Below are positions 4,780 through 27,545 of a stretch of DNA of 32,000 bases, one piece after another; position 1 is the first letter of the stretch, and every line of letters starts with the position of its first letter. The stretch comes from Aquifex aeolicus VF5 (GTDB lineage: Bacteria > Aquificota > Aquificia > Aquificales > Aquificaceae). The DNA lies in NCBI RefSeq assembly GCF_000008625.1, contig NC_000918.1, forward strand, positions 120,001 to 152,000. Direction: 5' to 3'. The translations under genes were made by a program, and so were the position numbers. The notes beneath the pieces were generated by a model. It was not told where the DNA came from. It ran no database searches and saw only the letters and a list, made by a program, of their open reading frames with translations.

Positions 4780-4795
4780 TGGCACGTTTTTTGCA
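4780..4795 (+). promoter_or_regulatory. Sigma-54 (-24/-12) promoter of the nirB-cobA-trpD-like operon
   Basis: TGGCACGTTTTTTGCA matches the consensus TGGCAC-N5-TTGCW exactly. It ends 25 nt upstream of the nirB ATG at 4821, with SD GGAGGAG in between. Confidence 0.8.
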
Positions 4796-4820: not shown

Positions 4821-7800
4821 ATGAAAGTAGTTATCGTTGGAAACGGAATAGCCGGAACGGCTCTTGTAGAGGAAATACTACGATTAAGCAGTGGAAAAGA
4901 TATAAGAATTCAAGTCTTTGGAGATGAAAAGTTTATAGGTTACAACAGGGTTCTCATAACAGAAGTTCTGGCTGGCAGGAAAACACTCAGTGAGATATAC
5001 ATAAAGCGCTGGCAGTGGTACGAGGAAAAGGGAGTAAGGCTGGAAATCGGTAAGAAGGTGGAAAGACTATTTCCCAATAAGAAGATACTCGTAACGAAAG
5101 ACGGGGAATTTTACAGGTACGATAAAGCTATAATAGCAACGGGAAGTAAGCCCTTTATACCTCCTTCTATTAAAGGCGTAAATAAAAAAGGTGTATTCAC
5201 TTACAGGACAGCAAAGGACGTTTTTGAAATTCTGGATTACGCCAGGGTTTCAAAAAGGGCGGTGGTAATCGGGGGAGGACTCCTCGGTATAGAAGTGACT
5301 AAAGCCCTAAGGGACATAGGTCTCGAAGTTTTTCTGGTTCATATCCTTGACACCCTAATGGAACAGCAACTTGATAAAACGGCTTCTGAGCTCCTAAGAA
5401 AGGATTTAGAAGATATGGGAATAAAAGTATTGCTCAAAAAAGTTACGGAAGAAATCTTAGGGGAGAAGAAAGCCGAGGGAGTACGTTTTTCAGATGGTGA
5501 TGAACTCCTTGCTGATTTTGTAATCATCGCTACGGGAATAAGACCGAACGTTGAAGTCGGTGTAAATTCAGGTCTAAAAGTAAACAAGGGCATAGTGGTT
5601 AACGACTACTTGGAGACCTCTGCGAGTGATATCTACGCCGTTGGAGAGTGTATAGAACACAGAGGAAAAACTTATGGTCTGGTAGCCCCAATAATGGAGC
5701 AAGTCAAGGTATGCGCTCACAACGTTGTTCACGGAAATGAAAAGAAGTACACGGGATCACTTACCTACGCTATGTTAAAGGTTGCGGGTGTAAATCTGTT
5801 TTCTGCGGGGGAAATTAACGAAAAAGACGGAGACGAGGTTGTAGCTTTTCTAGATAACGGAAGGTCACTGTATAGGAAAGCGGTAATCAGAAATAACAAA
5901 ATTGTAGGAACAATTTTGTATGGAGATGTAAGGGGAAACAATTACCTCCTCGACCTAATAAAAAGCGGTAAAGATATATCGGAAGAAAGACCGTATTTTC
6001 TTATAAAACACATCCTTCCCAAGGGCACAACCGGGGTTGAAGAACTTAAGGATAATGACATAGTTTGCAACTGCAACGCAGTAACGAAAGGCGAGATAGT
6101 CAAGTGCATTAAAGAAGGGTGTAAAACTTTAGAGGAAATTCAGGAAAGAACAAAAGCTTCTACTTCATGCGGTAGTTGTATAGAACTCGTTGAAGAAATA
6201 CTGAAACACTACGTAAAAGAAAAACCAAAGCGTGTTAATAAAATTGAGGTTATAAAAAAGGAGCTTCATCCCTTTGACTTAGAGTTTAAAAAACGTTTAG
6301 AGAAGTACTTTTCCGAAGGAGAGCTTGAAAACATTCCAGAAGAGGACAGGGACGTAAGACTAAAGTGGTATGGCATCTTTTACAGAAAAGCTACTCCAGG
6401 ATACTTCATGGTCAGAATTAGGGTTCCTAACGGAAGGCTTTCCTACGAGCAGGCTAAGGTAGTTTCCCACATTTCGGAGAAGTTCTGCAGGGGAGAAGTG
6501 GAAATAACTTCCCGTCAGCAACTTCAGATTAGGTGGATAAAGTTAAAAGATTTACCTGAAATCCTTGAAGCGTTAAACAGGGTAGGCCTTTCAACACTCC
6601 AGACGGGTATGGATAACGTGAGGAATGTAACAGGTGACCCTCTTACAGGTCTCGCAGAAGATTCTCTTATAGATACCCTGAGATTGTCTCAAGAGATAAC
6701 AAATATCTTTTTAGGTAAAAAGAAGTACGCAGACCTTCCAAGAAAACTAAACGTAGCGGTTCTGGGTTCACAAACGGACTGTATAAACGCCCTGTTTAAC
6801 GACGTTTGTTTTTACCTTTCGGAGAAGGATGGAAAGCTCGGTTTTAACCTTTATCTGGGCGGAAAGATAGGTTCAGGTGGCCCTAAAAAAGCGATAGATA
6901 TGGACATGTTCGTAGAACCTTACGAAGTACCCGAGGTGTTCAAGGCAACACTTGATATTTATTCAACTTTTGGAAACAGGGAAAACAGAAGTAAAAACAG
7001 ACTGTATTTCCTTCTTCAAGAGTGGGGAGTTGAAAGGTTCAGAGAAGAACTGGAAAAGAGACTGTACAAAGCTATACCCTCAAAAGGGAAAGATTTGGTA
7101 AACAAAACGGGGGAAAGGGAGGGGATTATAAACCTCAGGAATGGAACTTACGCAGTCTGTGTTGTAGTTCCGGCAGGAAAGATAAAGGCTAAGGACTTTA
7201 GACAGATTGCAGAGCTTGCAAGGAAATACGGAAGCAGAGAGCTCAGGTTAAGTGTGTATCAAAATATATACATCCCGAACATCCCGGAAGAGAACCTGAA
7301 CCCACTTCTCGGAGAAGAAATCTTTGAAAAGTTCAGCACGGTTAGCTCTCCTTTTACAATGCATCTTATAGCCTGTGCGGGAAGTGATACCTGTTCCTTT
7401 GGTGTCATACCTAACAAGAGTGACGCTGTGAGGGTGGCCAAATACTTAAGCGAAAGACTCAAACTTGACATTCCTGTCAGGATGCACTGGTCCGCCTGTG
7501 CCAAAGGTTGCGGTCAACACGGGAGCGGAGATATAGGATTTGTAGGGACTAAAACCAAGCTAAATGGAAAAGCTGTGCTGGCTGTAGACGTATTCGTCGG
7601 AGGTTCACCCACAAAGGAAGGTTTCAAAGTAATTCAAGGGCTTCCTTTAGATAAAGTGGAGGAAGCTTCTTACCTACTGCTTAACTACTACCTTGAAAAC
7701 AGACTAGAGGGGGAGAGCTTTGCGGATTTCGCCCACAGGGTAGGAGTGGATAAACTCAAGGTGGTTCTTACAAGTCTTTTACAGGAAGGGGAATGTAAGC

Positions 7801-7829
7801 TACTGAAACCCGAGAGTATAAGCAAGTAA
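4821..7829 (+). CDS. nirB: Assimilatory NAD(P)H nitrite reductase: a NirB-type flavoprotein and BFD [2Fe-2S] module fused to a full two-lobed sirohaem/[4Fe-4S] nitrite/sulfite reductase module
   Basis: 1002 aa. The N-terminus VVIVGNGIAGTA and a second Rossmann motif VVIGGGLLGIE mark the flavoprotein. CNCNAVTKGEI...SCGSC is the BFD-like 2Fe-2S motif. DVRLKWYGIFY, CAGSDTCSFG and SACAKGCGQHG are NiR/SiR hemoprotein motifs. Confidence 0.85.
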   Translation: MKVVIVGNGIAGTALVEEILRLSSGKDIRIQVFGDEKFIGYNRVLITEVLAGRKTLSEIYIKRWQWYEEKGVRLEIGKKVERLFPNKKILVTKDGEFYRYDKAIIATGSKPFIPPSIKGVNKKGVFTYRTAKDVFEILDYARVSKRAVVIGGGLLGIEVTKALRDIGLEVFLVHILDTLMEQQLDKTASELLRKDLEDMGIKVLLKKVTEEILGEKKAEGVRFSDGDELLADFVIIATGIRPNVEVGVNSGLKVNKGIVVNDYLETSASDIYAVGECIEHRGKTYGLVAPIMEQVKVCAHNVVHGNEKKYTGSLTYAMLKVAGVNLFSAGEINEKDGDEVVAFLDNGRSLYRKAVIRNNKIVGTILYGDVRGNNYLLDLIKSGKDISEERPYFLIKHILPKGTTGVEELKDNDIVCNCNAVTKGEIVKCIKEGCKTLEEIQERTKASTSCGSCIELVEEILKHYVKEKPKRVNKIEVIKKELHPFDLEFKKRLEKYFSEGELENIPEEDRDVRLKWYGIFYRKATPGYFMVRIRVPNGRLSYEQAKVVSHISEKFCRGEVEITSRQQLQIRWIKLKDLPEILEALNRVGLSTLQTGMDNVRNVTGDPLTGLAEDSLIDTLRLSQEITNIFLGKKKYADLPRKLNVAVLGSQTDCINALFNDVCFYLSEKDGKLGFNLYLGGKIGSGGPKKAIDMDMFVEPYEVPEVFKATLDIYSTFGNRENRSKNRLYFLLQEWGVERFREELEKRLYKAIPSKGKDLVNKTGEREGIINLRNGTYAVCVVVPAGKIKAKDFRQIAELARKYGSRELRLSVYQNIYIPNIPEENLNPLLGEEIFEKFSTVSSPFTMHLIACAGSDTCSFGVIPNKSDAVRVAKYLSERLKLDIPVRMHWSACAKGCGQHGSGDIGFVGTKTKLNGKAVLAVDVFVGGSPTKEGFKVIQGLPLDKVEEASYLLLNYYLENRLEGESFADFAHRVGVDKLKVVLTSLLQEGECKLLKPESISK

Positions 7830-9603: not shown

Positions 9604-9619
9604 TGGCACGCTTTTTGCA
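9604..9619 (+). promoter_or_regulatory. Sigma-54 (-24/-12) promoter of the globin-cynS-PII-porter-narB operon
   Basis: TGGCACGCTTTTTGCA is an exact match to TGGCAC-N5-TTGCW. It ends 27 nt upstream of the ATG at 9647. Confidence 0.8.
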
Positions 9620-9646
9620 ATTAGTTTGAGTGAAGGAGGTGAAAAG

Positions 9647-10066
9647 ATGTTGTCCGAGGAGACTATCAGGGTCATTAAGTCAACTGTCCCTCTTCTGAAA
9701 GAGCATGGTACGGAGATAACTGCTAGGATGTACGAATTGCTGTTTTCAAAGTATCCTAAAACTAAGGAGTTATTTGCAGGGGCTTCGGAGGAACAACCAA
9801 AGAAGCTTGCAAACGCCATAATAGCCTACGCTACCTACATTGATAGGCTAGAGGAGCTTGATAACGCTATCTCAACGATAGCCAGGAGTCATGTGCGAAG
9901 AAATGTAAAGCCGGAACATTATCCGCTGGTTAAAGAATGTCTCTTACAGGCAATTGAAGAGGTTTTAAATCCTGGGGAGGAAGTTCTCAAAGCATGGGAA
10001 GAGGCGTACGATTTTCTTGCTAAAACGCTTATAACCCTAGAGAAAAAACTTTATAGCCAGCCTTAG
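9647..10066 (+). CDS. Single-domain bacterial haemoglobin (Vitreoscilla Hb / flavohaemoglobin globin-domain type; thermoglobin-like)
   Basis: 139 aa counted from the ATG at 9647, with SD GGAGGTG 5 nt upstream. Tyr-B10 lies in ITARMYELLF, Gln-E7 in EEQPKKLANAI and the proximal His in IARSHVRRNVKPEHYPLV. The TTG start at 9626 in the ORF track is less likely, because the SD would then fall inside the ORF. Confidence 0.85.
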   Translation: MLSEETIRVIKSTVPLLKEHGTEITARMYELLFSKYPKTKELFAGASEEQPKKLANAIIAYATYIDRLEELDNAISTIARSHVRRNVKPEHYPLVKECLLQAIEEVLNPGEEVLKAWEEAYDFLAKTLITLEKKLYSQP

Positions 10067-14584: not shown

Positions 14585-16105
<1,521 letters not shown>

Positions 16106-19213: not shown

Positions 19214-19244
19214 ATTATAAGGAATTTTTAAGTAGTTTTGTAAA
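19214..19244 (-). promoter_or_regulatory. Possible sigma-70-type promoter of rpsO-pnp-dut (TTTACA-N19-TATAAT)
   Basis: On the minus strand, TATAAT is at 19219-19214 and TTTACA at 19244-19239. The 19-nt spacer is longer than optimal. Confidence 0.3.
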
Positions 19245-21315
19245 AAGGAAGCTCGTTTACCTTAATGCCGTAGCCCCAGAATAGTGCATTTGCCACCGCA
19301 GGTGCTATGGGCGGAAGTCCCGGTTCTCCCACACCTCCCATGTGGGCATCGCTGTTCAGTATGTGCACTTCTATTTCTTCGGGAGCCTCATCCATTCTCA
19401 GAATGGGATAAGTGTCGAAGTTGTCGTTTACGGGCTTTCCGTCTCTGAACCTAACCCCTTCCTTTAAAAAGGCACTGAGTCCCATAATTATCGCGCTTTC
19501 CATCTGGGCTCTTATGAGCTCAGGATTTACGGTTACGGGACCTATGTCTATAGTGCAAACTACCTTGTGTACCTTTATCTTGTCCTCTTCGTAAGAGACT
19601 TCCGCAACTTGTGCCACATGACTTCCGAAAGAGTAGTGGTAAGCAAAACCCATCGCTTTTCCGTATTTCGGCTCTTTGCCCCAGCCAGCTTTTTCGGCGG
19701 TGTACTCAACAACTCTCTGTGCTCTCGGGTTTGTTTCCAAGAGTTCTAATCTCATCTCTACCGGGTCTCTGTTTGCGAGTTTTGCAAGTCTATCTATGAA
19801 GGTTTCCAGGGTAAATGCGTTGTGAGTGCTTCCCACGGAGCGCCAGAAGAACACCGGAACGGGAAGGTCTACCTTTACCCACTCCACGTGGACGTTAGGG
19901 ATTTCGTAAAACATGTTGTGAACTCCTTCAACGGCGGCTGGGTCTATAATCACCTTTCTTCCTGCCCATTCAAAAACGGAGGGTACGGCTATTTTAAAGA
20001 AGAGGGCGTTTACTTTACCATTTTCGTCCACACTCCCTGCCATTTTTGTCGCGTTCATGGGTCTGTACCATCCCGACTTTACGTCGTCCTCCCTTGTGTA
20101 TATCAATTTCACGGGTCTTTTTATCGCCTTTGATACTTCAAGGGCTTCCCTTATAAATTCAACGTTTGCCTTTCGGCCAAAACCACCACCGAGGTAAGTG
20201 GTAATCACCTTTATCTTCTCCTCCGGAAGCCCTGTTATTTCCTTCGCCACGTTCAGTGTGGCAGTCTGGGCTTGAGTGGGTGCGAATATTAAACACTCGT
20301 CTTCTTTAACGTGCACGGTACAGTTCATAGGTTCCATGGTGGCGTGGTAGAGGTAAGGAAGGACGTAGGTTTCCTCAATCTTTTTCTTTGAATTCTTGAG
20401 AACTTCTTCCGGCTTCCCGTCTTTTCTGGCAACTATTCCCTTTTCTTGGAGCTTTTTCAAGTAATATTCCTTAAACTTCTCATCGTCCCAGCCATCTATG
20501 GGTGATTCTTCCCACTCAACCTGAATCTTCTCCCTAGCCTCCAGGCAGTCTTCTAAACTTTCACCGCAAATAGCAAGACCCGTTGATATGGGAACGAGTT
20601 TTACGTTATTGACCTCTCCCTTATATCCTTTCAACTTAGCTCCGAAGGGTGCCCTCTCCACAACAGCGTAAACCATACCTTCCATAAAGGTGTCTATTCC
20701 GAACTTCGCCCTCCCGTTTACTTTTTCGGGAACGTCTATTCTGGGGACACTTTTTCCTATGTATATGAACTCCTCTTTTGTCTTTAGTCTCGGATTGGTT
20801 GGTATCCTTTCCCTGAAGGCTTTTTCCGCAAAAGCACCATAAGGGTATTTTTCTCCTGTTTTCAGGTTTTCAATAAATCCCTGCTTAGCCCTTAAATACT
20901 TCTTCTCCACTCCGAGTTCTTTTGATGCTGCGGAAAGGAGCATTTCCTTCATAGACGCTCCTACGAACCTCAAAAAGTCGTACATGTGTCTTACGCTCGT
21001 ACTTCCTCCCGTGAGCTGCACTCCCCACTTTGGATCTACGTACTTTTTACCCGCGGGTGCGGGTTCTACCTTTACCCTTTCCCAAGGAAAGTCAAGTTCA
21101 TCAGCGAGTATTTGGGGAAGTCCCGTGTAAACTCCCTGTCCCATTTCAGATTTATTGACGAGAACGGTCAGGTAGTTGTCCTCCGAGAGTTTTATCCAGA
21201 GTTCCGGAGCGTAATTTGGCAGCACTTCATCTGCTTTCAAAAGCCTGTAGCCGTCAGAGGTGAGCACTACGGCAAGAGCCAGACCGCCTTTTATAAAATC
21301 TCTCCTGCTTATCAT
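19228..21315 (-). CDS. Molybdopterin-binding large subunit of an aldehyde oxidase/xanthine dehydrogenase-family hydroxylase (IorB-like), TAT-exported
   Basis: The likely start is the ATG at 21315 ([17 protein letters not shown], a twin-arginine signal), which overlaps the small-subunit stop as ATGA. The 25 extra N-terminal codons in the ORF track lie inside the small-subunit gene. The body has IorB/CoxL-like segments (GGGFGRK, GVGEPGLPP). Confidence 0.8.
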   Translation of the reverse strand: MISRRDFIKGGLALAVVLTSDGYRLLKADEVLPNYAPELWIKLSEDNYLTVLVNKSEMGQGVYTGLPQILADELDFPWERVKVEPAPAGKKYVDPKWGVQLTGGSTSVRHMYDFLRFVGASMKEMLLSAASKELGVEKKYLRAKQGFIENLKTGEKYPYGAFAEKAFRERIPTNPRLKTKEEFIYIGKSVPRIDVPEKVNGRAKFGIDTFMEGMVYAVVERAPFGAKLKGYKGEVNNVKLVPISTGLAICGESLEDCLEAREKIQVEWEESPIDGWDDEKFKEYYLKKLQEKGIVARKDGKPEEVLKNSKKKIEETYVLPYLYHATMEPMNCTVHVKEDECLIFAPTQAQTATLNVAKEITGLPEEKIKVITTYLGGGFGRKANVEFIREALEVSKAIKRPVKLIYTREDDVKSGWYRPMNATKMAGSVDENGKVNALFFKIAVPSVFEWAGRKVIIDPAAVEGVHNMFYEIPNVHVEWVKVDLPVPVFFWRSVGSTHNAFTLETFIDRLAKLANRDPVEMRLELLETNPRAQRVVEYTAEKAGWGKEPKYGKAMGFAYHYSFGSHVAQVAEVSYEEDKIKVHKVVCTIDIGPVTVNPELIRAQMESAIIMGLSAFLKEGVRFRDGKPVNDNFDTYPILRMDEAPEEIEVHILNSDAHMGGVGEPGLPPIAPAVANALFWGYGIKVNELPFYKTT

Positions 21316-21770
21316 ACTTTTACCTCCCTCATCATCTGGGCAGCCCTCTGAACAGCCCTTACAATCCTCAGGTAAGTCCCGCACCTGCACAGGTGTGAAG
21401 ACATGACACTTACTATTTCCTCTTTTGAAGGGTTCGGATTTTTACTCAGAAGTGCATAGGCTTCCACTATTTGTCCGGGCTGGCAGTATCCGCACTGGGG
21501 AACCTGAAGTTCAATCCATGCCCTTTTAACAGGGTGTTCTTCGGGAATTCCCTCGATGGTTATTATTTCTTTTCATTCCGCTTCCTTGACTGGGTACTGA
21601 CAGCTCCTCACAGGATTTCCGTCTATTAAAACGGTGCAGGAACCGCATATTCCCTTACCGCATCCGAACTTCGTCCCGGTAAGTCTCAACCTCTCCCTTA
21701 TTACCCAGAGGAGAGGCGTATCAGGACTTACATTTACTTCGTACATTTTTCCGTTTACTTTTAAAAGCAT
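21312..21770 (-). CDS. [2Fe-2S] small subunit of the Mo-hydroxylase (IorA/CoxS-like), interrupted by an in-frame TGA at 21573-21575
   Basis: N-terminal half: [12 protein letters not shown]...[22 protein letters not shown] (plant-type 2Fe-2S). After the TGA the same frame continues as [42 protein letters not shown]...[15 protein letters not shown]...KV*, which carries the second 2Fe-2S motif. The likely start is the ATG at 21770, just after GGAGGT; the track start is 21782. Confidence 0.6.
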
Positions 21771-21803
21771 TCCTACCTCCATAAGTTTTAAATTTAATTG
21801 ATA

Positions 21804-23150
21804 ATGATTCTTTTGGTTGAAGATGACGACAACTTAAGGGAACTCCTTAAGAAAAAACTCGAAGAACACTTCGTGGTAGAAACTGCAAAAGACGGAAAGA
21901 CGGCAAGGGAGAAGTTAAGTAAAAATAACTACGACGTTGTTCTCCTCGATATAAGACTTCCCGACGTAGACGGAACAGAACTTTTGAAAGAGTTTTCAAC
22001 GAGCGGGGTTAAGTTCATAGTGATTACCGGCTACGGAGACGTAAAAACGGCCGTCCAATGTGTAAAACTGGGAGCCTACGACTTTATCCAAAAACCTTTT
22101 AACTTTGAACTACTGGAAGTAACTATAAGAAGGGCACTTAAAGAGAAAAGACTGGAGGAGGAAAACAGGACGTTAAAGAGCTTCCTCTTTAAGGAAAAGG
22201 AAGAAGATTACCTGCTGGAAACCAGAAGTCCAAAGTTCAGGGAAGTTTTAGAAATAGCGAGGAGGATTGCAAATACAGACCTTCCCGTGCTCATACGCGG
22301 AGAGACGGGAGTGGGGAAGGAAGTTCTTGCTAAATATATACACACTATTTCAAATAGGAAGGACAAACCTTTCGTGGTAGTGGATTGCACCTCTATACCC
22401 GAGCACCTCTTTGAGAGCGAACTCTTTGGATACGAAAAGGGAGCCTTTACGGGGGCAAATACTAGAAAACTAGGACTTGTTGAACTCGCAAATGGCGGAA
22501 CGCTCTTTTTTGACGAAATAGGAGAAATGCCTCTCTCAATTCAAGCAAAGCTCCTGAGATTTATAGAAACTAGAAAGTTTAGAAGGGTAGGAGGTTTAAA
22601 GGATCTAGAAGTAGATGTCAAAATAATTTGCGCTACGAATAAGGATTTATACGAGAAGTCAAAGAGAGGAGAGTTCAGAGAAGACCTCTATTTTCGTATA
22701 AACACAGTGGAAATCGAAATCCCTCCTCTCAGGGAAAGAAAGGAAGACATACCCCTCCTCGTGGAGTTTTTCCTGAAGAAATATGGGAAGAAGATCAAAA
22801 AAGAAACCTTAAACGAGCTTATAAATTACCCCTGGGAGGGAAACGTAAGGGAACTTAAGAACGTAATAGAGAGGGCATGCATACTCTCAACGGGTGAGTA
22901 TATTGACGAGGCGATATGTCTCAGTAAGAAAAGCGTGAGCTGTGTGGAAAAAATGATGGAAAAACTCCCAAGTCTTGAAGAGCTTGAAGGGATGTACCTC
23001 AAGTTTCTTTACGAAAAACTGGAAGGTGATGTGGACAAAATTGCCGTTATTCTCGGCTGTAGCAGGAGAACCGTCTTCAGAAAGTTAAAGAAGTTAAGAG
23101 AGGGGAAGGTGCACTTCAAAAATGCTTCCCTTTCCGGGGGCACTCCTTAA
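21804..23150 (+). CDS. NtrC-family sigma-54-dependent response regulator (REC + AAA+ + HTH)
   Basis: The receiver domain has [13 protein letters not shown]. The AAA+ domain has [14 protein letters not shown] and FREDLYFRI. The HTH reads [19 protein letters not shown]. Start is the ATG at 21804, or the TTG at 21798 as in the track. No SD is visible. Confidence 0.9.
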
Positions 23151-24113
23151 GTTTATTTTTCCCCCGTAGCTCTTTACAATGTCGTTCACTATGGCAAGTC
23201 CCAGTCCACTCCCTTCCCTCTTGTCTTTCCCGTGATAAAAGGGCAGGAATATCTTGTCCACTTCTTCGGGAGGTATGCCTTTCCCTTCATCCTCTACAAT
23301 TAAAATCAACTCCTCACCTTCTTTTTTCAGGAAAACTCTCACTTTCTTCCCCCTGTCTGATGCCTGAATTGCGTTCAGAACCAAGTTTAGAACCACGTGT
23401 CTTATGTCCGTTTCGTTTCCAAACATGTAAACGCTTTCAAGTTCTTTTTCTATAATTACTCCTCTCTCTTTTGCGTAAACTCTTAAAAGTTCAAGTACGT
23501 CTTCCACAGCCTTTTTAGTATCCACTAAATCCTTGTTGTTATCCTTCCTCGCAAAAAGCAGTAGCTTGTCAACGGTGTTTTTACAGCTAATGAGTGCATT
23601 TTTTATAACCTCTATCTCTTCACAACTTCCGCACTTTTTTTCCAGCTCCTCAAGTGCAAGGCTTATGGTCGCGAGAGGTGTGTTTAGTTGATGGGCAACT
23701 CCGAGGGCAAGGTACCCCACAGAACTGAGCTTTTGAGAAAGGCTGAAGAGGTAAAACTTTTCCTTGTCGTTCTTTATGTTTTTTATGAACTGAATTATTT
23801 TCCTGCCCTCTTCTATTGGGAAAGCACAGATTTCTACGTGAACTTCCTTGTTATCGTGGGTGTAGTGGGTATGAACCACACTGACAGCTCCTTTCCTTTT
23901 CTGGATCTCTTTTAAGGGACAGGGATGACACTCACCGTCGCAGGGCTCGTCCCTCTTGTGAGAAACAAGATAGCAAGGCTTCCCCACGACCTCCTCTTTA
24001 CTTCTGTACCCGTTTTCCTTCACGTAAGACTCGTTGGCGTAAACTATTTTGTAATCTTTGTCTATCACCACAACCTGTTCTTTAAACTTTTCAAATACCT
24101 CAAACTCCCCCAT
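23094..24113 (-). CDS. Soluble sensor histidine kinase: Cys-rich PAS-like domain + HisKA + HATPase_c
   Basis: 339 aa with no hydrophobic TM segment. The PAS-like N-terminus carries C47-x10-C58-x3-C62-x2-C65. The H-box is GVAHQLNTPLATI. The ATPase has N, G1 and G2 boxes (VLNLVLNAIQA, DEGKGI, GSGLGLAIV). The 3' end overlaps the convergent regulator gene by 57 nt. Confidence 0.85.
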   Translation of the reverse strand: MGEFEVFEKFKEQVVVIDKDYKIVYANESYVKENGYRSKEEVVGKPCYLVSHKRDEPCDGECHPCPLKEIQKRKGAVSVVHTHYTHDNKEVHVEICAFPIEEGRKIIQFIKNIKNDKEKFYLFSLSQKLSSVGYLALGVAHQLNTPLATISLALEELEKKCGSCEEIEVIKNALISCKNTVDKLLLFARKDNNKDLVDTKKAVEDVLELLRVYAKERGVIIEKELESVYMFGNETDIRHVVLNLVLNAIQASDRGKKVRVFLKKEGEELILIVEDEGKGIPPEEVDKIFLPFYHGKDKREGSGLGLAIVNDIVKSYGGKINLRSAPGKGSIFEVHLPLS

Positions 24114-24147: not shown

Positions 24148-24183
24148 GTGTCAAGTTTGTCACTAAGGTGTCATTTTTGACAC
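24148..24183. promoter_or_regulatory. Two tandem 16-bp GTG-N10-CAC sites (GTGTCAAGTTTGTCAC and GTGTCATTTTTGACAC), centres 20 bp apart; candidate upstream activator sequence
   Basis: Read directly. The second site sits inside the perfect 7-4-7 palindrome GGTGTCA-TTTT-TGACACC (24167-24184). TGTCA/TGACA half-sites start at 24149, 24158, 24169 and 24178. The sites lie 45-80 bp upstream of the sigma-54 promoter. Confidence 0.5.
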
Positions 24184-24225
24184 CTGATTCTTTTCAAGTT
24201 CCTTAGAATTTCAGTGTCCAGAAAT

Positions 24226-24241
24226 TGGCACGAAAATTGCA
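24226..24241 (+). promoter_or_regulatory. Sigma-54 (-24/-12) promoter of the fccB-Rieske-fccB operon
   Basis: TGGCACGAAAATTGCA is an exact match to TGGCAC-N5-TTGCW. It ends 33 nt upstream of the ATG at 24275 (SD GGAGGT). Confidence 0.8.
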
Positions 24242-24274
24242 ATAAATACAACGAACAAAAATGGAGGTAAGAGT

Positions 24275-25585
24275 ATGGGTGTAAATAGGAGAGACGTTTT
24301 TAAACTGGCGGGTTTGGGGGTAGCTCTGGGAGCACTTCAATTACCCTCTATTGCATGTGCTGCGAAAACGTCAAATAGCTTGCTCTCTCCTTCTAAGGGA
24401 AAGAGGATAGTAATCGTGGGAGGAGGATGGGCCGGTGTTACGGCGGCAAAATATATAAGGAAGGAAATCCCCGACGCGGAAGTGGTTCTCATAGAACAGA
24501 GAAAGATGTTTATGTCCTGTCCGATAAGTAACGTATGGCTGGGTGGGCTGGTAGACCTGGAATTCCTTATACACGACTTCTTAACACCCGCTGCAAAGTA
24601 CGGTTACACTTTCATTAACGCAACCGTAACGGATATAGACAGGGATAAAAGAAGGGTATACACGGAAGACGGATACGTTGAGTACGACTACCTCATACTC
24701 GCACCAGGAATAAGGTACAACTACGACGCATGGTTTAACGGAGATAAGGACATGGCAAGGTACGCTCAGACACACTACCCATCCGCTTTCATTCCCGGCT
24801 CTGAGCACTTGAGGCTGAAGAAGAAAGTGGAAAACTTCGAAGAAGGGACGTTTGTACTGGTTGTTCCTCCACCTCCACACAGATGTCCTCCCGCACCTTA
24901 CGAGAGGGCAGCTATGATAGCGCACGTTTTCAGGCAAAACGAAGCCAAGGCAAAATTGATAATCCTTGATCCAAAAGAAAAGATAGCTCCAAAGGGTCCC
25001 GGTTTCAGAATGGCTTACGAGCAGCTGTATCTTGACATAATAGAGTACGTTCCCAACGCAAAGATAAAGGAAGTTGACCCCGTTAAAAAGGTTATAAAGA
25101 CTACCGCAGGGGACTTTAAGTTTGACGACGCTAACCTGAACCCTCCCCATCAAGCGGCGGACATTGCCTGGAAAGCCGGACTCGTCAATCCAAAAACGGG
25201 CTGGTGTGATGTAGACCCTATAACGCTTCAGTCTAAGGTGGACAAGAGGATATTCATCCCCGGAGACGCAAACTCCGTAAAAGGTTTTCCAAAGAGCGGT
25301 GATATGGCGAACAACCAGACCAAGTTTATGCTCGTGAAAGCTATAAAGGCGATGATAGAAGGAAAGGATCCCCTTGAATACGTAAAGGCTCCTACAAACA
25401 CCTGTTACTCTATGGTAAACGGAGACCCGAAAGAAGCGATAGTCATTAACGTTGTTTACGACATAGACAAACAAAAGCGTATGCCCGTTAAGAAGAAGGT
25501 TAACGTAGAAAACGAGCGTTCTCAAAGACTCGCAAGGGCTACATTTGAATGGGCTAAAGCCATGTACAGGGATATGTTCTCGTGA
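24275..25585 (+). CDS. fccB: Flavocytochrome c sulfide dehydrogenase flavoprotein-like (FccB/SoxF-type) FAD oxidoreductase, TAT signal
   Basis: 436 aa. NRRDVFKLAGLGVALGA is a twin-arginine signal and IVIVGGGWAGVTAAKY is the FAD Rossmann motif. The FCSD redox-Cys contexts are MSCPISN, HRCPPAPYERA and NTCYSMVNG. Confidence 0.8.
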   Translation: MGVNRRDVFKLAGLGVALGALQLPSIACAAKTSNSLLSPSKGKRIVIVGGGWAGVTAAKYIRKEIPDAEVVLIEQRKMFMSCPISNVWLGGLVDLEFLIHDFLTPAAKYGYTFINATVTDIDRDKRRVYTEDGYVEYDYLILAPGIRYNYDAWFNGDKDMARYAQTHYPSAFIPGSEHLRLKKKVENFEEGTFVLVVPPPPHRCPPAPYERAAMIAHVFRQNEAKAKLIILDPKEKIAPKGPGFRMAYEQLYLDIIEYVPNAKIKEVDPVKKVIKTTAGDFKFDDANLNPPHQAADIAWKAGLVNPKTGWCDVDPITLQSKVDKRIFIPGDANSVKGFPKSGDMANNQTKFMLVKAIKAMIEGKDPLEYVKAPTNTCYSMVNGDPKEAIVINVVYDIDKQKRMPVKKKVNVENERSQRLARATFEWAKAMYRDMFS

Positions 25586-25594
25586 GGTAAGGAA

Positions 25595-26311
25595 ATGGAC
25601 AGAAGAACCTTCGTAAAAGCCTGCGGGTCAGTTGCCACACTTTCCCTTATCTCTTCCTCCTTTTTTACTCAAACCTTAAGAGCACAAACCAACGAGTTCA
25701 AAAAGTACAAAAAGGCTATTCTGCTGAACAAAGATGGAAATCCGATAAAGCCGGAGGAGATAGAAGTCGGAAAGCAGTACTTGTTTTTCTACCCTTACCG
25801 CTCAACGCCTGCCTTTTTGCTCAACCTCGGAAAGGAAGTAAAGCCTGTGGAAGTAAAGCTCTTAGACGGGAGTTCCTACCTCTGGCCCGGAGGCGTAGGT
25901 CCTCAAAAAAGCATTATCGCTTTCTGTGCTATATGTCCACATCAACTCAGTTATCCGACTCCCGATTATTCTTTCATTAATTACTATCCGCCCGACAAGC
26001 CCTCAAAAGCGGCAAAAAAAGGAAACGTCATTCAGTGCTGTGCCCACATGTCCATCTTTGACCCCGAAAAGGGAGGAGTTGTACTGGACGGTCCCGCGGA
26101 ATACCCCTTACTTACGATAGTCCTTTCATACGAGGATGGAAAACTTTACGCGGTCGGGACGCTCGGTGTGGAGAAGTTTTCAGATTTCTTTGATGCCTAC
26201 CGCTCTGAGCTTAAGAAAATGTACAAATCCTTCAGAAAGGCAAAGAAGAAGGTGGATAAATCTGTTGTTATGAGGGTGGAGGAGTACGTAAATGAAGTCA
26301 TTTACTGTTGA
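25595..26311 (+). CDS. TAT-exported Rieske-type [2Fe-2S] protein
   Basis: 238 aa. MDRRTFVKACGSVA is a twin-arginine signal. The Rieske ligand motifs are C114-P-H116 and C148-C-A-H151, with 31 residues between them, plus an extra Cys111. Confidence 0.7.
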   Translation: MDRRTFVKACGSVATLSLISSSFFTQTLRAQTNEFKKYKKAILLNKDGNPIKPEEIEVGKQYLFFYPYRSTPAFLLNLGKEVKPVEVKLLDGSSYLWPGGVGPQKSIIAFCAICPHQLSYPTPDYSFINYYPPDKPSKAAKKGNVIQCCAHMSIFDPEKGGVVLDGPAEYPLLTIVLSYEDGKLYAVGTLGVEKFSDFFDAYRSELKKMYKSFRKAKKKVDKSVVMRVEEYVNEVIYC

Positions 26312-27545
26312 CAGAAGGAATTTACTGCTTGCAGGTGGAATTGGACTTTTGGGTGTTTACGTTTCAAAGAGTCTTGTCTTTGGAGAGACTAAGGGAAACA
26401 GGGTTGTGGTTCTCGGGGGAGGGTACGGGGGTGTTACAACTGCAAAGTACGTAAAGAAACTTTACCCCGATGCGGAAGTTGTTCTGGTAGAAAAGAACCC
26501 AATGTTCGTGTCCTGTCCTCTGAGCAACCTCTACCTGGTTGGTTTAGTTCCTTACGAACAGCTCTGCTATCCATATAACAACCTAGTGACAAAGTACGGT
26601 GTGAACTTCGTAAACGACGAGGTTATAGGAATTGAGCTTGATAAGAGAGAAGTAATTCTCGGAAACGGAAGACTGAAGTACGACTACCTAGTGATTTCAC
26701 TCGGCATAGAGTACGATTACGAAGAAAATCCGGCGTTGAAGGAAGTTTACTGGAGTTATCCTCCCGCATTCAGACAGGGAAGCGAACACCTTTACCTGAA
26801 GAGGATGCTCGAAGGCTTTGAAGGGGAGAGTATATTAATCAGCGTCCCGAAGATGCCATACCGCTGTCCTTCCGCACCTTACGAGAGAGCCGCACTTATA
26901 CTCTCCTACGCCAAAAAGGAAGGACTTAAAGTTCACCTTTACTTCGTAGATGAGAACGAAAGACCTCCCGTACTTACAAAAGGATTTTTGAAAGCTTACC
27001 AAGACTTTTACAAAGACGACGCCACTTACCTTACCTCAACAAAAGTTCTGGAAGTTGACCCCGTCAAAAAAGTGGCAAGAACCACGAAAGGCGACATAAA
27101 GTTCAGTATGGCAAACTTCATACCCCCCATGAGGGCTCCAAAGCTTCTGGAAAAGGCAGGACTTTTGAAGAAAGGGGAAAAGTGGGTAAAAGTGGATCCC
27201 ATGACTTTTGAAACCTCAGTAAAAAACGTTTTCGTTATAGGGGACAGTGCCTTTACCTATCTGCCAAAGAGCGGTTACGCTGCTCACTCACAGGGTAAAG
27301 TAGTCGCAAAGGTTATAGCTTCAAGACTCAGGAAAAAGCCCTGGGAGGGAGAGCTTATACAGCAAGCGGTTTGCTACGCCATGGTAAACCTCAAGCAGGC
27401 GATAATGATGAACGTGGAGTACAAGTACAACCTAAAGACAAAAGAGATAAAGAAGGAGATTTACGAGGACGATACCTGGAAGGTTTCAACAGCAAAGAGG
27501 TATATAGAGTGGGCGAGGGGACTGTGGAGGGACATGTTTACGTGA
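26292..27545 (+). CDS. fccB: Second FccB/SoxF-type sulfide dehydrogenase flavoprotein paralog, TAT-like signal
   Basis: 417 aa with DRRNLLLAGGIGLLG and VVVLGGGYGGVTTAKY. The same Cys contexts recur: VSCPLSN, YRCPSAPYERA and AVCYAMVN. SD GGTGGAGGAG lies upstream. It overlaps the Rieske gene by 20 nt. Confidence 0.8.
   Translation: MKSFTVDRRNLLLAGGIGLLGVYVSKSLVFGETKGNRVVVLGGGYGGVTTAKYVKKLYPDAEVVLVEKNPMFVSCPLSNLYLVGLVPYEQLCYPYNNLVTKYGVNFVNDEVIGIELDKREVILGNGRLKYDYLVISLGIEYDYEENPALKEVYWSYPPAFRQGSEHLYLKRMLEGFEGESILISVPKMPYRCPSAPYERAALILSYAKKEGLKVHLYFVDENERPPVLTKGFLKAYQDFYKDDATYLTSTKVLEVDPVKKVARTTKGDIKFSMANFIPPMRAPKLLEKAGLLKKGEKWVKVDPMTFETSVKNVFVIGDSAFTYLPKSGYAAHSQGKVVAKVIASRLRKKPWEGELIQQAVCYAMVNLKQAIMMNVEYKYNLKTKEIKKEIYEDDTWKVSTAKRYIEWARGLWRDMFT

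Follow-up and report, generated by a model that had tools for sequence, protein, structure and literature searches.

The dhsU operon of Aquifex aeolicus VF5 lies in a window of 32,000 nt that we analyzed at full length (NC_000918.1, positions 120,001-152,000 of the forward strand; coordinates below are those of the window). In this operon the gene for a Rieske-type iron-sulfur protein is placed between the genes for two flavoproteins that belong to the family of flavocytochrome c sulfide dehydrogenase (FCSD). The best explanation of the locus, to which we assign a probability of about 0.6 as a whole, is that it encodes a periplasmic module for the oxidation of reduced sulfur. Electrons from flavin adenine dinucleotide (FAD) would pass to the Rieske cluster and from there to a c-type cytochrome encoded elsewhere, the first flavoprotein and the Rieske protein forming the core pair and the second flavoprotein serving as a second partner. 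The order flavoprotein-Rieske-flavoprotein is not a discovery because the dhsU locus has been annotated and the same arrangement was drawn in a relative in 2012 (PMC3504083). We regard the module as a plausible variant of a known enzyme type, a reasonable interpretation that is strengthened by comparative genomics.

The dhsU operon encodes two flavoproteins and a Rieske protein

The module consists of three genes on the forward strand, whose products are referred to as FlavA, the Rieske protein and FlavB:

24275-25585, + strand: FlavA (DhsU), 436 amino acids (aa), FCSD-family flavoprotein with a twin-arginine translocation (TAT) signal
25595-26311, + strand: Rieske protein, 238 aa, [2Fe-2S] protein of the AioB/SoxF type with a TAT signal
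26292-27545, + strand: FlavB, 417 aa, second FCSD-family flavoprotein with a TAT signal

According to the list of open reading frames (ORFs), a gap of 9 nt separates the FlavA and Rieske genes, while the Rieske and FlavB genes overlap by 20 nt. Each of the three proteins carries a twin-arginine motif (NRRDVFK in FlavA, DRRTFVK in the Rieske protein, DRRNLLL in FlavB). In the 1998 genome annotation they presumably went by the names dhsU, soxF (Rieske-I) and fccB'. The next gene 3' of FlavB is guaA, which lies convergently on the opposite strand. FlavA is DhsU, since window bases 24218-24253 are those of the published dhsU36 promoter oligonucleotide. A search of both strands of the 32 kb revealed no ORF of at least 50 aa that bears a CxxCH motif, and the gene map of the window holds no sox gene. 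A preliminary description of this stretch, made from the sequence, had reported the same three ORFs with identical coordinates and overlap, TAT-type signals on all three products and the lack of an FccA-type cytochrome gene, and our analysis agrees with it on each of these points.

FlavA and FlavB retain the hallmarks of FCSD flavoproteins

The assignment of both flanking genes to the FCSD family, already made in the preliminary description, is borne out by domain and structure searches. FlavA matches the Pfam families Pyr_redox_2, FCSD_central (3e-28) and FCSD-flav_bind, all above the cut-off. FlavB matches Pyr_redox_2 and FCSD_central (1.1e-17) above the cut-off, and scores 23.8 bits for FCSD-flav_bind, which is just below the cut-off of 26. 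FCSD flavoproteins were also the best matches of both proteins in the PDB, with E-values for FlavA and FlavB, respectively, of 6.7e-68 and 6.7e-46 (5n1t), 2.5e-55 and 1.4e-47 (1fcd) and 5.3e-53 and 1.5e-45 (3vrd). The two proteins are about 38-40% identical to each other.

The cysteine contexts that had been named as FCSD hallmarks are indeed present in both proteins, as SCPISN (C82), RCPPAPYERA (C204) and TCYSMVN (C377) in FlavA and as SCPLSN (C75), RCPSAPYERA (C192) and VCYAMVN (C361) in FlavB. At the aligned positions, the FCSD flavoprotein structure 1FCD from Allochromatium has Cys42, Cys161 and Cys337, respectively. By this alignment, C82 of FlavA and C75 of FlavB would occupy the 8-alpha-S-cysteinyl FAD position, and the pairs C204/C377 and C192/C361 would correspond to the redox-active disulfide.

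The middle gene encodes a Rieske-fold protein of the AioB/SoxF kind

Ligand motif, Pfam and structural modelling agree that the middle gene encodes a real Rieske-fold protein of the AioB/SoxF kind, as its earlier reading as a TAT-exported Rieske-type protein had implied. The Pfam Rieske model PF00355 is passed narrowly, with 22.1 bits where 20.3 are required. SoxL2 (TIGR03171) is the best NCBIfam model with 97 bits (cut-off 582), and the AioB model (TIGR02694) reaches 47.7 bits against a cut-off of 95.65. The best sequence matches in the PDB were Sulfolobus SoxF (1jm1, 1.3e-09) and AioB. An AlphaFold2 (AF2) model built with 71 homologues gave a predicted local distance difference test score (pLDDT) of 89.5 and a predicted template modelling score (pTM) of 0.82, with residues 1-31 disordered as expected of a signal peptide. 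About 45 aa at the C-terminus make up a helical extension that is modelled as ordered. Foldseek searches with the model placed AioB and SoxF 1jm1 at the top (E about 5e-9; TM-scores of 0.77-0.84 over AioB), with values for AioB of E about 5e-9 to 3e-8 and TM 0.75-0.84, and gave a probability of 1.00 to AioB, SoxF and the Rieske subunits of bc1/b6f complexes.

The predicted cluster ligands are C114-P-H116 and C148-C-A-H151, the canonical CxH...CxxH set, and H116 and H151 are the sole histidines of the protein. C114, H116 and C148 are invariant in the family. The earlier numbering of these ligands and of C111 and C149 proved correct. In place of the canonical high-potential disulfide pattern (CxHxGC...CxCH), the protein has CPHQLS in box I and CCAH in box II, and the alignment puts Ser119 and Ala150 at the positions of the disulfide cysteines of SoxF 1jm1. 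S153 falls on the position of the cluster-hydrogen-bonding serine of bc1 Rieske proteins, and F155 takes the place of the tyrosine. Because the serine is kept and the tyrosine is replaced, an intermediate, positive redox potential of about +100 to +300 mV would be expected; in bc1 Rieske proteins both residues raise the potential as hydrogen-bond donors.

We rejected an identity as the small subunit of arsenite oxidase, as the AioB score lies below its cut-off and no AioA-type gene is adjacent. An arsenite-like oxyanion, which had been listed among the conceivable substrates, was discarded on the same two grounds and because the gene context is sulfur-related and related clusters repeatedly contain SoxYZ genes. 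The only molybdoenzyme nearby is a molybdopterin-binding subunit of the xanthine dehydrogenase family with a TAT motif (19228-21390, - strand). Its listed ORF starts at a GTG 25 codons earlier, the added stretch holds the motif CKGCSEGC, and no adjacent ORF for a small 2Fe-2S or FAD subunit was seen.

C149 and the C-terminal cysteine may form a replacement disulfide

The extra cysteines of the Rieske protein had been described as unusual and as placed differently from the bc1/b6f pattern. This holds for C149, which is part of a hallmark pair. C111, in contrast, is not conserved in the family alignment and is confined to close relatives, and the second member of the pair, the last residue C238, had been overlooked. 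C149 and C238 are the extra cysteines found family-wide, and the last residue is a cysteine in nearly all members with the CC type of box II. Among the 80 loci surveyed below, all 17 with Ser, Met or Thr at position 149 end in Tyr, Leu or Ala and thus have no terminal cysteine, and four representatives of 50% identity clusters with a residue other than Cys at 149 likewise have none. The C-terminus of the AF2 model has a pLDDT of about 95 and ends in a short strand. Since the two cysteines co-vary and the extension is modelled as ordered, we consider it most likely that a C149-C238 disulfide anchors the C-terminal extension on the loop that binds the cluster, in place of the canonical Rieske disulfide.

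A further cysteine, Cys10 (25622-25624), is about 90% conserved in the family within the sequence RRxFxKxC, inside the presumably cleaved signal peptide. It is mostly lost along with C149 and the C-terminal cysteine in Campylobacterota. Cys10 was rejected as a lipoprotein site, as it lies five residues past the RR motif and has no lipobox.

His151-type Rieske proteins always adjoin an FCSD gene

The preliminary description had proposed the phylogenetic spread of the flavoprotein-Rieske linkage as a check, and this linkage turned out to be real and wide. A profile search with the Rieske protein yielded 145 clusters (50% identity) at E ≤1e-30. Taking one genome per species, we found at least 501 proteins related to it and examined the best 80 loci, counting a locus as linked if an FCSD-family gene lay within 2.5 kb of the Rieske gene on the same strand. 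The loci divided as follows:

FCSD-linked: 45 of 80 loci; residue 151 is His in 45 of 45
No FCSD gene, complete contig: 34 of 80 loci; residue 151 is Glu or Asp in 34 of 34
No FCSD gene, contig cut off where the Rieske gene begins (L026): 1 of 80 loci; residue 151 is His

Thus, on complete contigs of this set, proteins with the canonical ligands (His151) always adjoin an FCSD gene, and the stand-alone proteins are a separate subfamily. Linked loci span at least three phyla. They comprise every complete Aquificota locus, Sulfurimonas, Sulfurovum, Sulfuricurvum and other Campylobacterota, the alphaproteobacterium Thermopetrobacter and two metagenome-assembled genomes (MAGs) labelled 'Entotheonella'. 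In nearly all full-length FCSD flavoprotein ORFs linked to a Rieske gene the twin arginines are kept.

A rough neighbour-joining tree divides the linked flavoproteins into several clades, namely FlavA, FlavB, the upstream flavoproteins of Hydrogenothermaceae and at least two clades of Campylobacterota. Pairing with the Rieske protein is thus either of early origin or evolved more than once. The FlavB-type copies belong to a single clade and, in Aquificaceae and Hydrogenothermaceae, are always located directly 3' of the Rieske gene, which they overlap. Thermocrinis albus and many other Aquificaceae have a FlavA-type gene and the Rieske gene alone, which indicates that FlavB is dispensable; an obligate FlavA-Rieske-FlavB heterotrimer is therefore unlikely. 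In one Aquifex MAG (L008, 9153-10062) two ORFs take the place of an intact FlavB orthologue, owing to a frameshift or pseudogene formation or to an assembly error. Several FCSD flavoproteins of Campylobacterota (L030, L033-L035, L057 and L065) carry a cysteine immediately behind the TAT signal, within a lipobox-like sequence (VTGC, MSGC or GGCA), and may be membrane-anchored TAT lipoproteins, unlike those of Aquifex.

The unlinked loci belong to Burkholderiales and several Gammaproteobacteria, where the Rieske-family gene sits amid unrelated housekeeping genes. In this subfamily Glu or Asp replaces the second histidine (CC[SA][ED]x, x being His in Burkholderiales only), and C114, H116, C148, C149 and the C-terminal cysteine are kept. 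Examples of stand-alone proteins noted for the L037-L087 set are L005-L007, L041, L045 and L067 (box II aligned to residues 148-153 of the window protein). No partner emerged for the stand-alone proteins of Burkholderiales and Gammaproteobacteria, as their neighbours vary (NUDIX, aat/ate and others) and none is common to most loci. The downstream neighbours in the Aquifex clade were not retained as parts of the module, as their sequences read as housekeeping proteins (lumazine-synthase-like, NusB-like and OmpA-like).

Genes for c-type haem proteins and Sox proteins lie in related clusters

In 13 Campylobacterota loci (L030, L034, L035, L044, L046, L048, L050, L052, L057, L061, L063, L065 and L075) the gene directly 3' of the Rieske gene encodes a protein of 134-146 aa with a Sec-type signal, a single CxxCH near the C-terminus (QCTSCHIRIRNW) and no Pfam match. 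Judged by these features, it is a candidate for a small novel cytochrome c that accepts the electrons of the Rieske protein. In Hydrogenothermaceae, a gene for a monohaem cytochrome c lies 5' of the upstream flavoprotein gene, and the cluster continues with a second cytochrome c gene followed by the genes for SoxY, SoxZ and SoxA. Genes for SoxY and SoxZ (Pfam 3e-30 and 4e-23) are also inserted between the flavoprotein and Rieske genes of Sulfurovum L075, a SoxY-family gene has the same place in Sulfuricurvum L063, and L079 has SoxYZ genes just 5' of the Rieske gene.

Because cytochrome-type genes sit nearby in Campylobacterota and Hydrogenothermaceae, the Rieske protein would be a link to cytochrome c and not necessarily its replacement. 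This qualifies the earlier proposal that the module uses a Rieske centre instead of a cytochrome c subunit. The part that stands is that no cytochrome gene lies near the A. aeolicus genes; the substitution itself goes beyond this observation, and relatives encode c-type proteins beside the module.

A model for electron transfer and its alternatives

We propose that sulfide or a related sulfane-sulfur substrate would be oxidized in the periplasm at the Cys-Cys/FAD site of FlavA and/or FlavB. Electrons would then leave singly to a dedicated, separately exported [2Fe-2S] Rieske protein of the AioB/SoxF type, which would act in the role of FccA and would reduce a c-type cytochrome whose gene lies elsewhere in the genome, feeding the terminal oxidase. 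In A. aeolicus this acceptor would be cytochrome c555. FlavA and the Rieske protein would make up the core pair. FlavB, which is specific to Aquificota and translationally coupled to the Rieske gene, is probably an alternative partner of the same Rieske protein.

We infer the physical association of the proteins, the direction and path of the electrons and the substrate from several observations. Three TAT motifs, the 9-nt gap, the 20-nt overlap and a single validated promoter place the proteins in the same compartment and on the same transcript, which supports pairing. Pairing is also favoured by the linkage of the genes in 45 of 80 loci, with flavoproteins from several separate branches of the tree, and by the match between this linkage and the retention of His151. 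An exit of electrons via the Rieske protein is supported by analogy to arsenite oxidase, in which cytochrome c receives its electrons from AioB (8ed4). A c-type acceptor is suggested by the loci in which an acceptor is encoded nearby, since there a c-type haem protein sits beside the Rieske gene. The sulfide-oxidizing role, finally, is supported by DhsU1, a flavoprotein from the equivalent upstream position in a Sulfurihydrogenibium-like cluster. Recombinant DhsU1 is a monomeric flavoprotein with sulfide dehydrogenase activity and a Km of 16.5 µM (PMC3504083).

Several points weigh against this model. DhsU1 was active as a monomer in vitro and needed no Rieske protein (PMC3504083); it belongs to a clade different from that of FlavA, with 38% identity, and has its own cytochrome c gene beside it. 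Each protein of the A. aeolicus module has its own TAT signal, so contact between them may be transient rather than that of a stable complex. The 34 loci without an FCSD neighbour mean that the Rieske fold is not exclusively tied to FCSD, and a Pfam scan of ten unusually long family matches found no fusion of a Rieske domain to a flavoprotein or a cytochrome. The ten look like gene-calling run-ons into unrelated genes and were dismissed as candidates for Rosetta-stone fusions. SoxYZ genes within related clusters make the assignment of the substrate less certain, and the co-variation of C149 and C238 rests on very few independent losses.

Some of these points would also be expected if the Rieske protein were a freely diffusing periplasmic carrier, comparable to cytochrome c or a high-potential iron-sulfur protein (HiPIP), that takes electrons from more than one donor, for example Sox or other dehydrogenases, and is merely co-expressed with the flavoproteins. 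A TAT signal on every protein, the occurrence of the Rieske family alone in 34 of 80 loci, sox genes within or next to the cluster of several lineages and the lack of fusions among the long matches scanned all fit such a carrier. We nevertheless consider it unlikely, because the stand-alone proteins are the distinct Glu/Asp151 subfamily and say little about proteins with canonical ligands, whereas genes of the His151 type are always direct neighbours of an FCSD gene, and the two reading frames often overlap. The sox genes inside L075, L063, L079 and the Hydrogenothermaceae clusters also raise the idea that the flavoproteins are monomeric enzymes of the SoxF type acting on protein-bound sulfane sulfur, such as a SoxY-persulfide or polysulfide, with the Rieske protein linking this reaction to the respiratory chain. 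Monomeric SoxF proteins of the FCSD family are known (cited in PMC3504083). Yet the 32-kb window contains no sox gene, and the only relative that has been measured, DhsU1, accepts sulfide specifically and showed no activity with sulfur, sulfite or thiosulfate (PMC3504083), so that we regard this idea as distinctly improbable for A. aeolicus. That the C-terminal cysteine of the Rieske protein forms a sulfur-carrying arm, reminiscent of the GGCGG of SoxY, and accepts a persulfide from the flavoprotein, which would make the protein a carrier of both sulfur and electrons, is very improbable. Although cysteine is the final residue in nearly all CC-type members, the C-terminus is ordered and packed in the model (with its high pLDDT and short end strand) and not a flexible arm, the terminal cysteine co-varies with C149 as expected of a disulfide, and FCSD-linked Campylobacterota proteins lack the C-terminal cysteine altogether.

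A sigma-54 promoter and a two-component system adjoin the operon

The region upstream of FlavA contains the following features:

21798-23150, + strand: NtrC-type response regulator with receiver, AAA+ sigma-54 interaction and HTH_8 domains (Pfam Response_reg, Sigma54_activat 1.8e-69, HTH_8)
23094-24113, - strand: PAS-domain histidine kinase, divergent from the operon (Pfam PAS_9, HisKA, HATPase_c)
24148-24183, no strand: two tandem imperfect palindromes, GTGTCAAGTTTGTCAC and GTGTCATTTTTGACAC, found by repeat search, 20 nt apart
24226-24240, + strand: sigma-54 -24/-12 promoter of dhsU, TGGCAC-N5-TTGC (motif and match to the published promoter)

The promoter TGGCACGAAAATTGC (24226-24240) is located 35 nt 5' of the FlavA ATG. 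The bare pattern GG-N10-GC occurs 8 times in the window against 7.1 expected and is therefore not rarer than chance. The 36-mer at 24218-24253 is identical to the A. aeolicus dhsU36 promoter oligonucleotide that served for cryo-electron microscopy of the sigma-N holoenzyme, and the window sequence agrees with the published -60 to +30 dhsU fragment (PMC10083551). Fragments of the dhsU promoter bound sigma-N holoenzyme, and the -60 to +30 fragment gave run-off transcription in vitro that required an activator (PMC10083551). The single sigma-54 promoter that the preliminary description had placed before the cluster is thus the published dhsU promoter with activity in vitro.

The NtrC-type regulator is the likely activator of this promoter, and expression of the operon is probably driven by the adjacent PAS kinase together with this regulator. 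The same regulator family is found 5' of the flavoprotein-Rieske module in 11 related loci, and the histidine kinase is kept beside the regulator in the Aquifex-clade loci L008-L010. The two palindromes lie 43-78 nt 5' of the -24 element and are a plausible candidate for the enhancer, or upstream activating sequence (UAS), of the adjacent regulator. A stem-loop at 24166-24185 was rejected as a terminator, as it is one of these palindromes. The kinase has a cysteine-rich stretch within its PAS domain (KPCYLVSHKRDEPCDGECHPCP), which might be a metal, cluster or sulfide/redox sensing site.

In the Hydrogenobacter-like loci L003, L004 (5952) and L017 (9941), a sigma-54 motif TGGCAC-N5-TTGC lies within the flavoprotein-Rieske gap, 49-60 nt 5' of the Rieske gene, and a weaker TGGTAT variant is found about 260 nt 5' of the Rieske gene in the Hydrogenothermaceae loci L024 and L025 (9743 and 3044). 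The position of the motif directly 5' of the Rieske gene suggests that the Rieske and FlavB genes can form a separate sigma-54 transcription unit in such loci.

Near-identical sigma-54 -24/-12 motifs (TGGCACG-N4-TTGC) occur three times in the window, at 4780-4794, 9604-9618 and 24226-24240. The last of them is the dhsU promoter, and the other two precede the ORFs 4821-7829 and 9626-10066. Judged by its N-terminal sequence, the ORF 14585-16105 (- strand, 506 aa) may encode a second, NifA-like sigma-54 activator; if so, the region would carry several sigma-54 units.

A possible third wiring for sulfide respiration

Aquificota and sulfur-oxidizing Campylobacterota are the dominant primary producers of hot springs and hydrothermal vents. 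Tentatively, and with less confidence than we place in the model for A. aeolicus, we suggest that FCSD flavoproteins and a C-terminally extended, AioB-like Rieske protein could constitute a distinct 'flavo-Rieske' sulfide dehydrogenase. Such an enzyme would be a third respiratory wiring beside sulfide:quinone oxidoreductase (SQR) and flavocytochrome c, and would serve Aquificota and many Campylobacterota from vents and hot springs as their main periplasmic sulfide dehydrogenase, with the Glu/Asp151 proteins as a sister subfamily whose cluster is differently ligated. If the Rieske protein is indeed the dedicated acceptor, a widespread iron-sulfur alternative to the textbook flavocytochrome c would exist. 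Annotations would change in hundreds of genomes, where current names are 'Rieske protein', '(2Fe-2S)-binding protein' or 'secreted protein'. It would also give Rieske proteins of the AioB/SoxF-like kind a third type of partner, a flavoprotein beside a molybdoenzyme and cytochrome b, which bears on the reuse of an ancient electron-transfer module.

Comparison with known systems

Full-text literature searches found no paper on an FCSD-Rieske complex or on a Rieske protein as the partner of FCSD. The closest precedent is the dhsU1-Rieske-dhsU2 cluster that Tamazawa et al., 2012 drew for an uncultured, Sulfurihydrogenibium-like 'large sausage-shaped bacterium', a study in which the Rieske protein was not considered as a partner (PMC3504083). 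The gene order flavoprotein-Rieske-flavoprotein is that of A. aeolicus. In related Sulfurihydrogenibium/Hydrogenothermaceae loci of the same order (L024-L028), the downstream copy is the FlavB orthologue with about 50% identity, whereas the upstream copy lies in a clade other than that of FlavA (about 38% identity). In the DhsU1 cluster, unlike the A. aeolicus window, a cytochrome c gene lies upstream and sox genes follow downstream.

The FccAB enzymes of Allochromatium vinosum (1FCD), Thermochromatium (3VRD) and Thioalkalivibrio (5N1T) have the same flavoprotein domains, TAT signal, FAD-thioether cysteine and redox cysteine pair as the dhsU flavoproteins. FccAB is periplasmic and its electrons end on c-type cytochromes, and the dhsU module would be read likewise. 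In contrast to FccAB, the dhsU operon has a Rieske gene in the place of FccA, for which there is no gene within the 32 kb, and it encodes two paralogous flavoproteins.

The Rieske protein shares its ligand motifs and the serine after box II (S153) with Sulfolobus SoxF (1JM1) and SoxL2. Those proteins, however, are membrane-anchored subunits of quinol-oxidizing cytochrome b complexes with a canonical disulfide, whereas the dhsU Rieske gene has no cytochrome b neighbour. Its closest structural relative is AioB of arsenite oxidase (AioAB; 1G8K, 4AAY, 8ED4), which is likewise TAT-exported. The Rieske protein of dhsU differs from AioB by an added N-terminal strand region and by the C-terminal extension of about 45 aa that ends in cysteine, and its extra cysteines are placed differently from the disulfide of A. 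faecalis AioB. The partners differ as well, AioB being paired with a molybdopterin/3Fe-4S subunit and the dhsU protein with a flavoprotein. In arsenite oxidase the Rieske cluster of AioB is the exit to a soluble cytochrome c, as captured in 8ED4, the complex with cytochrome c552.

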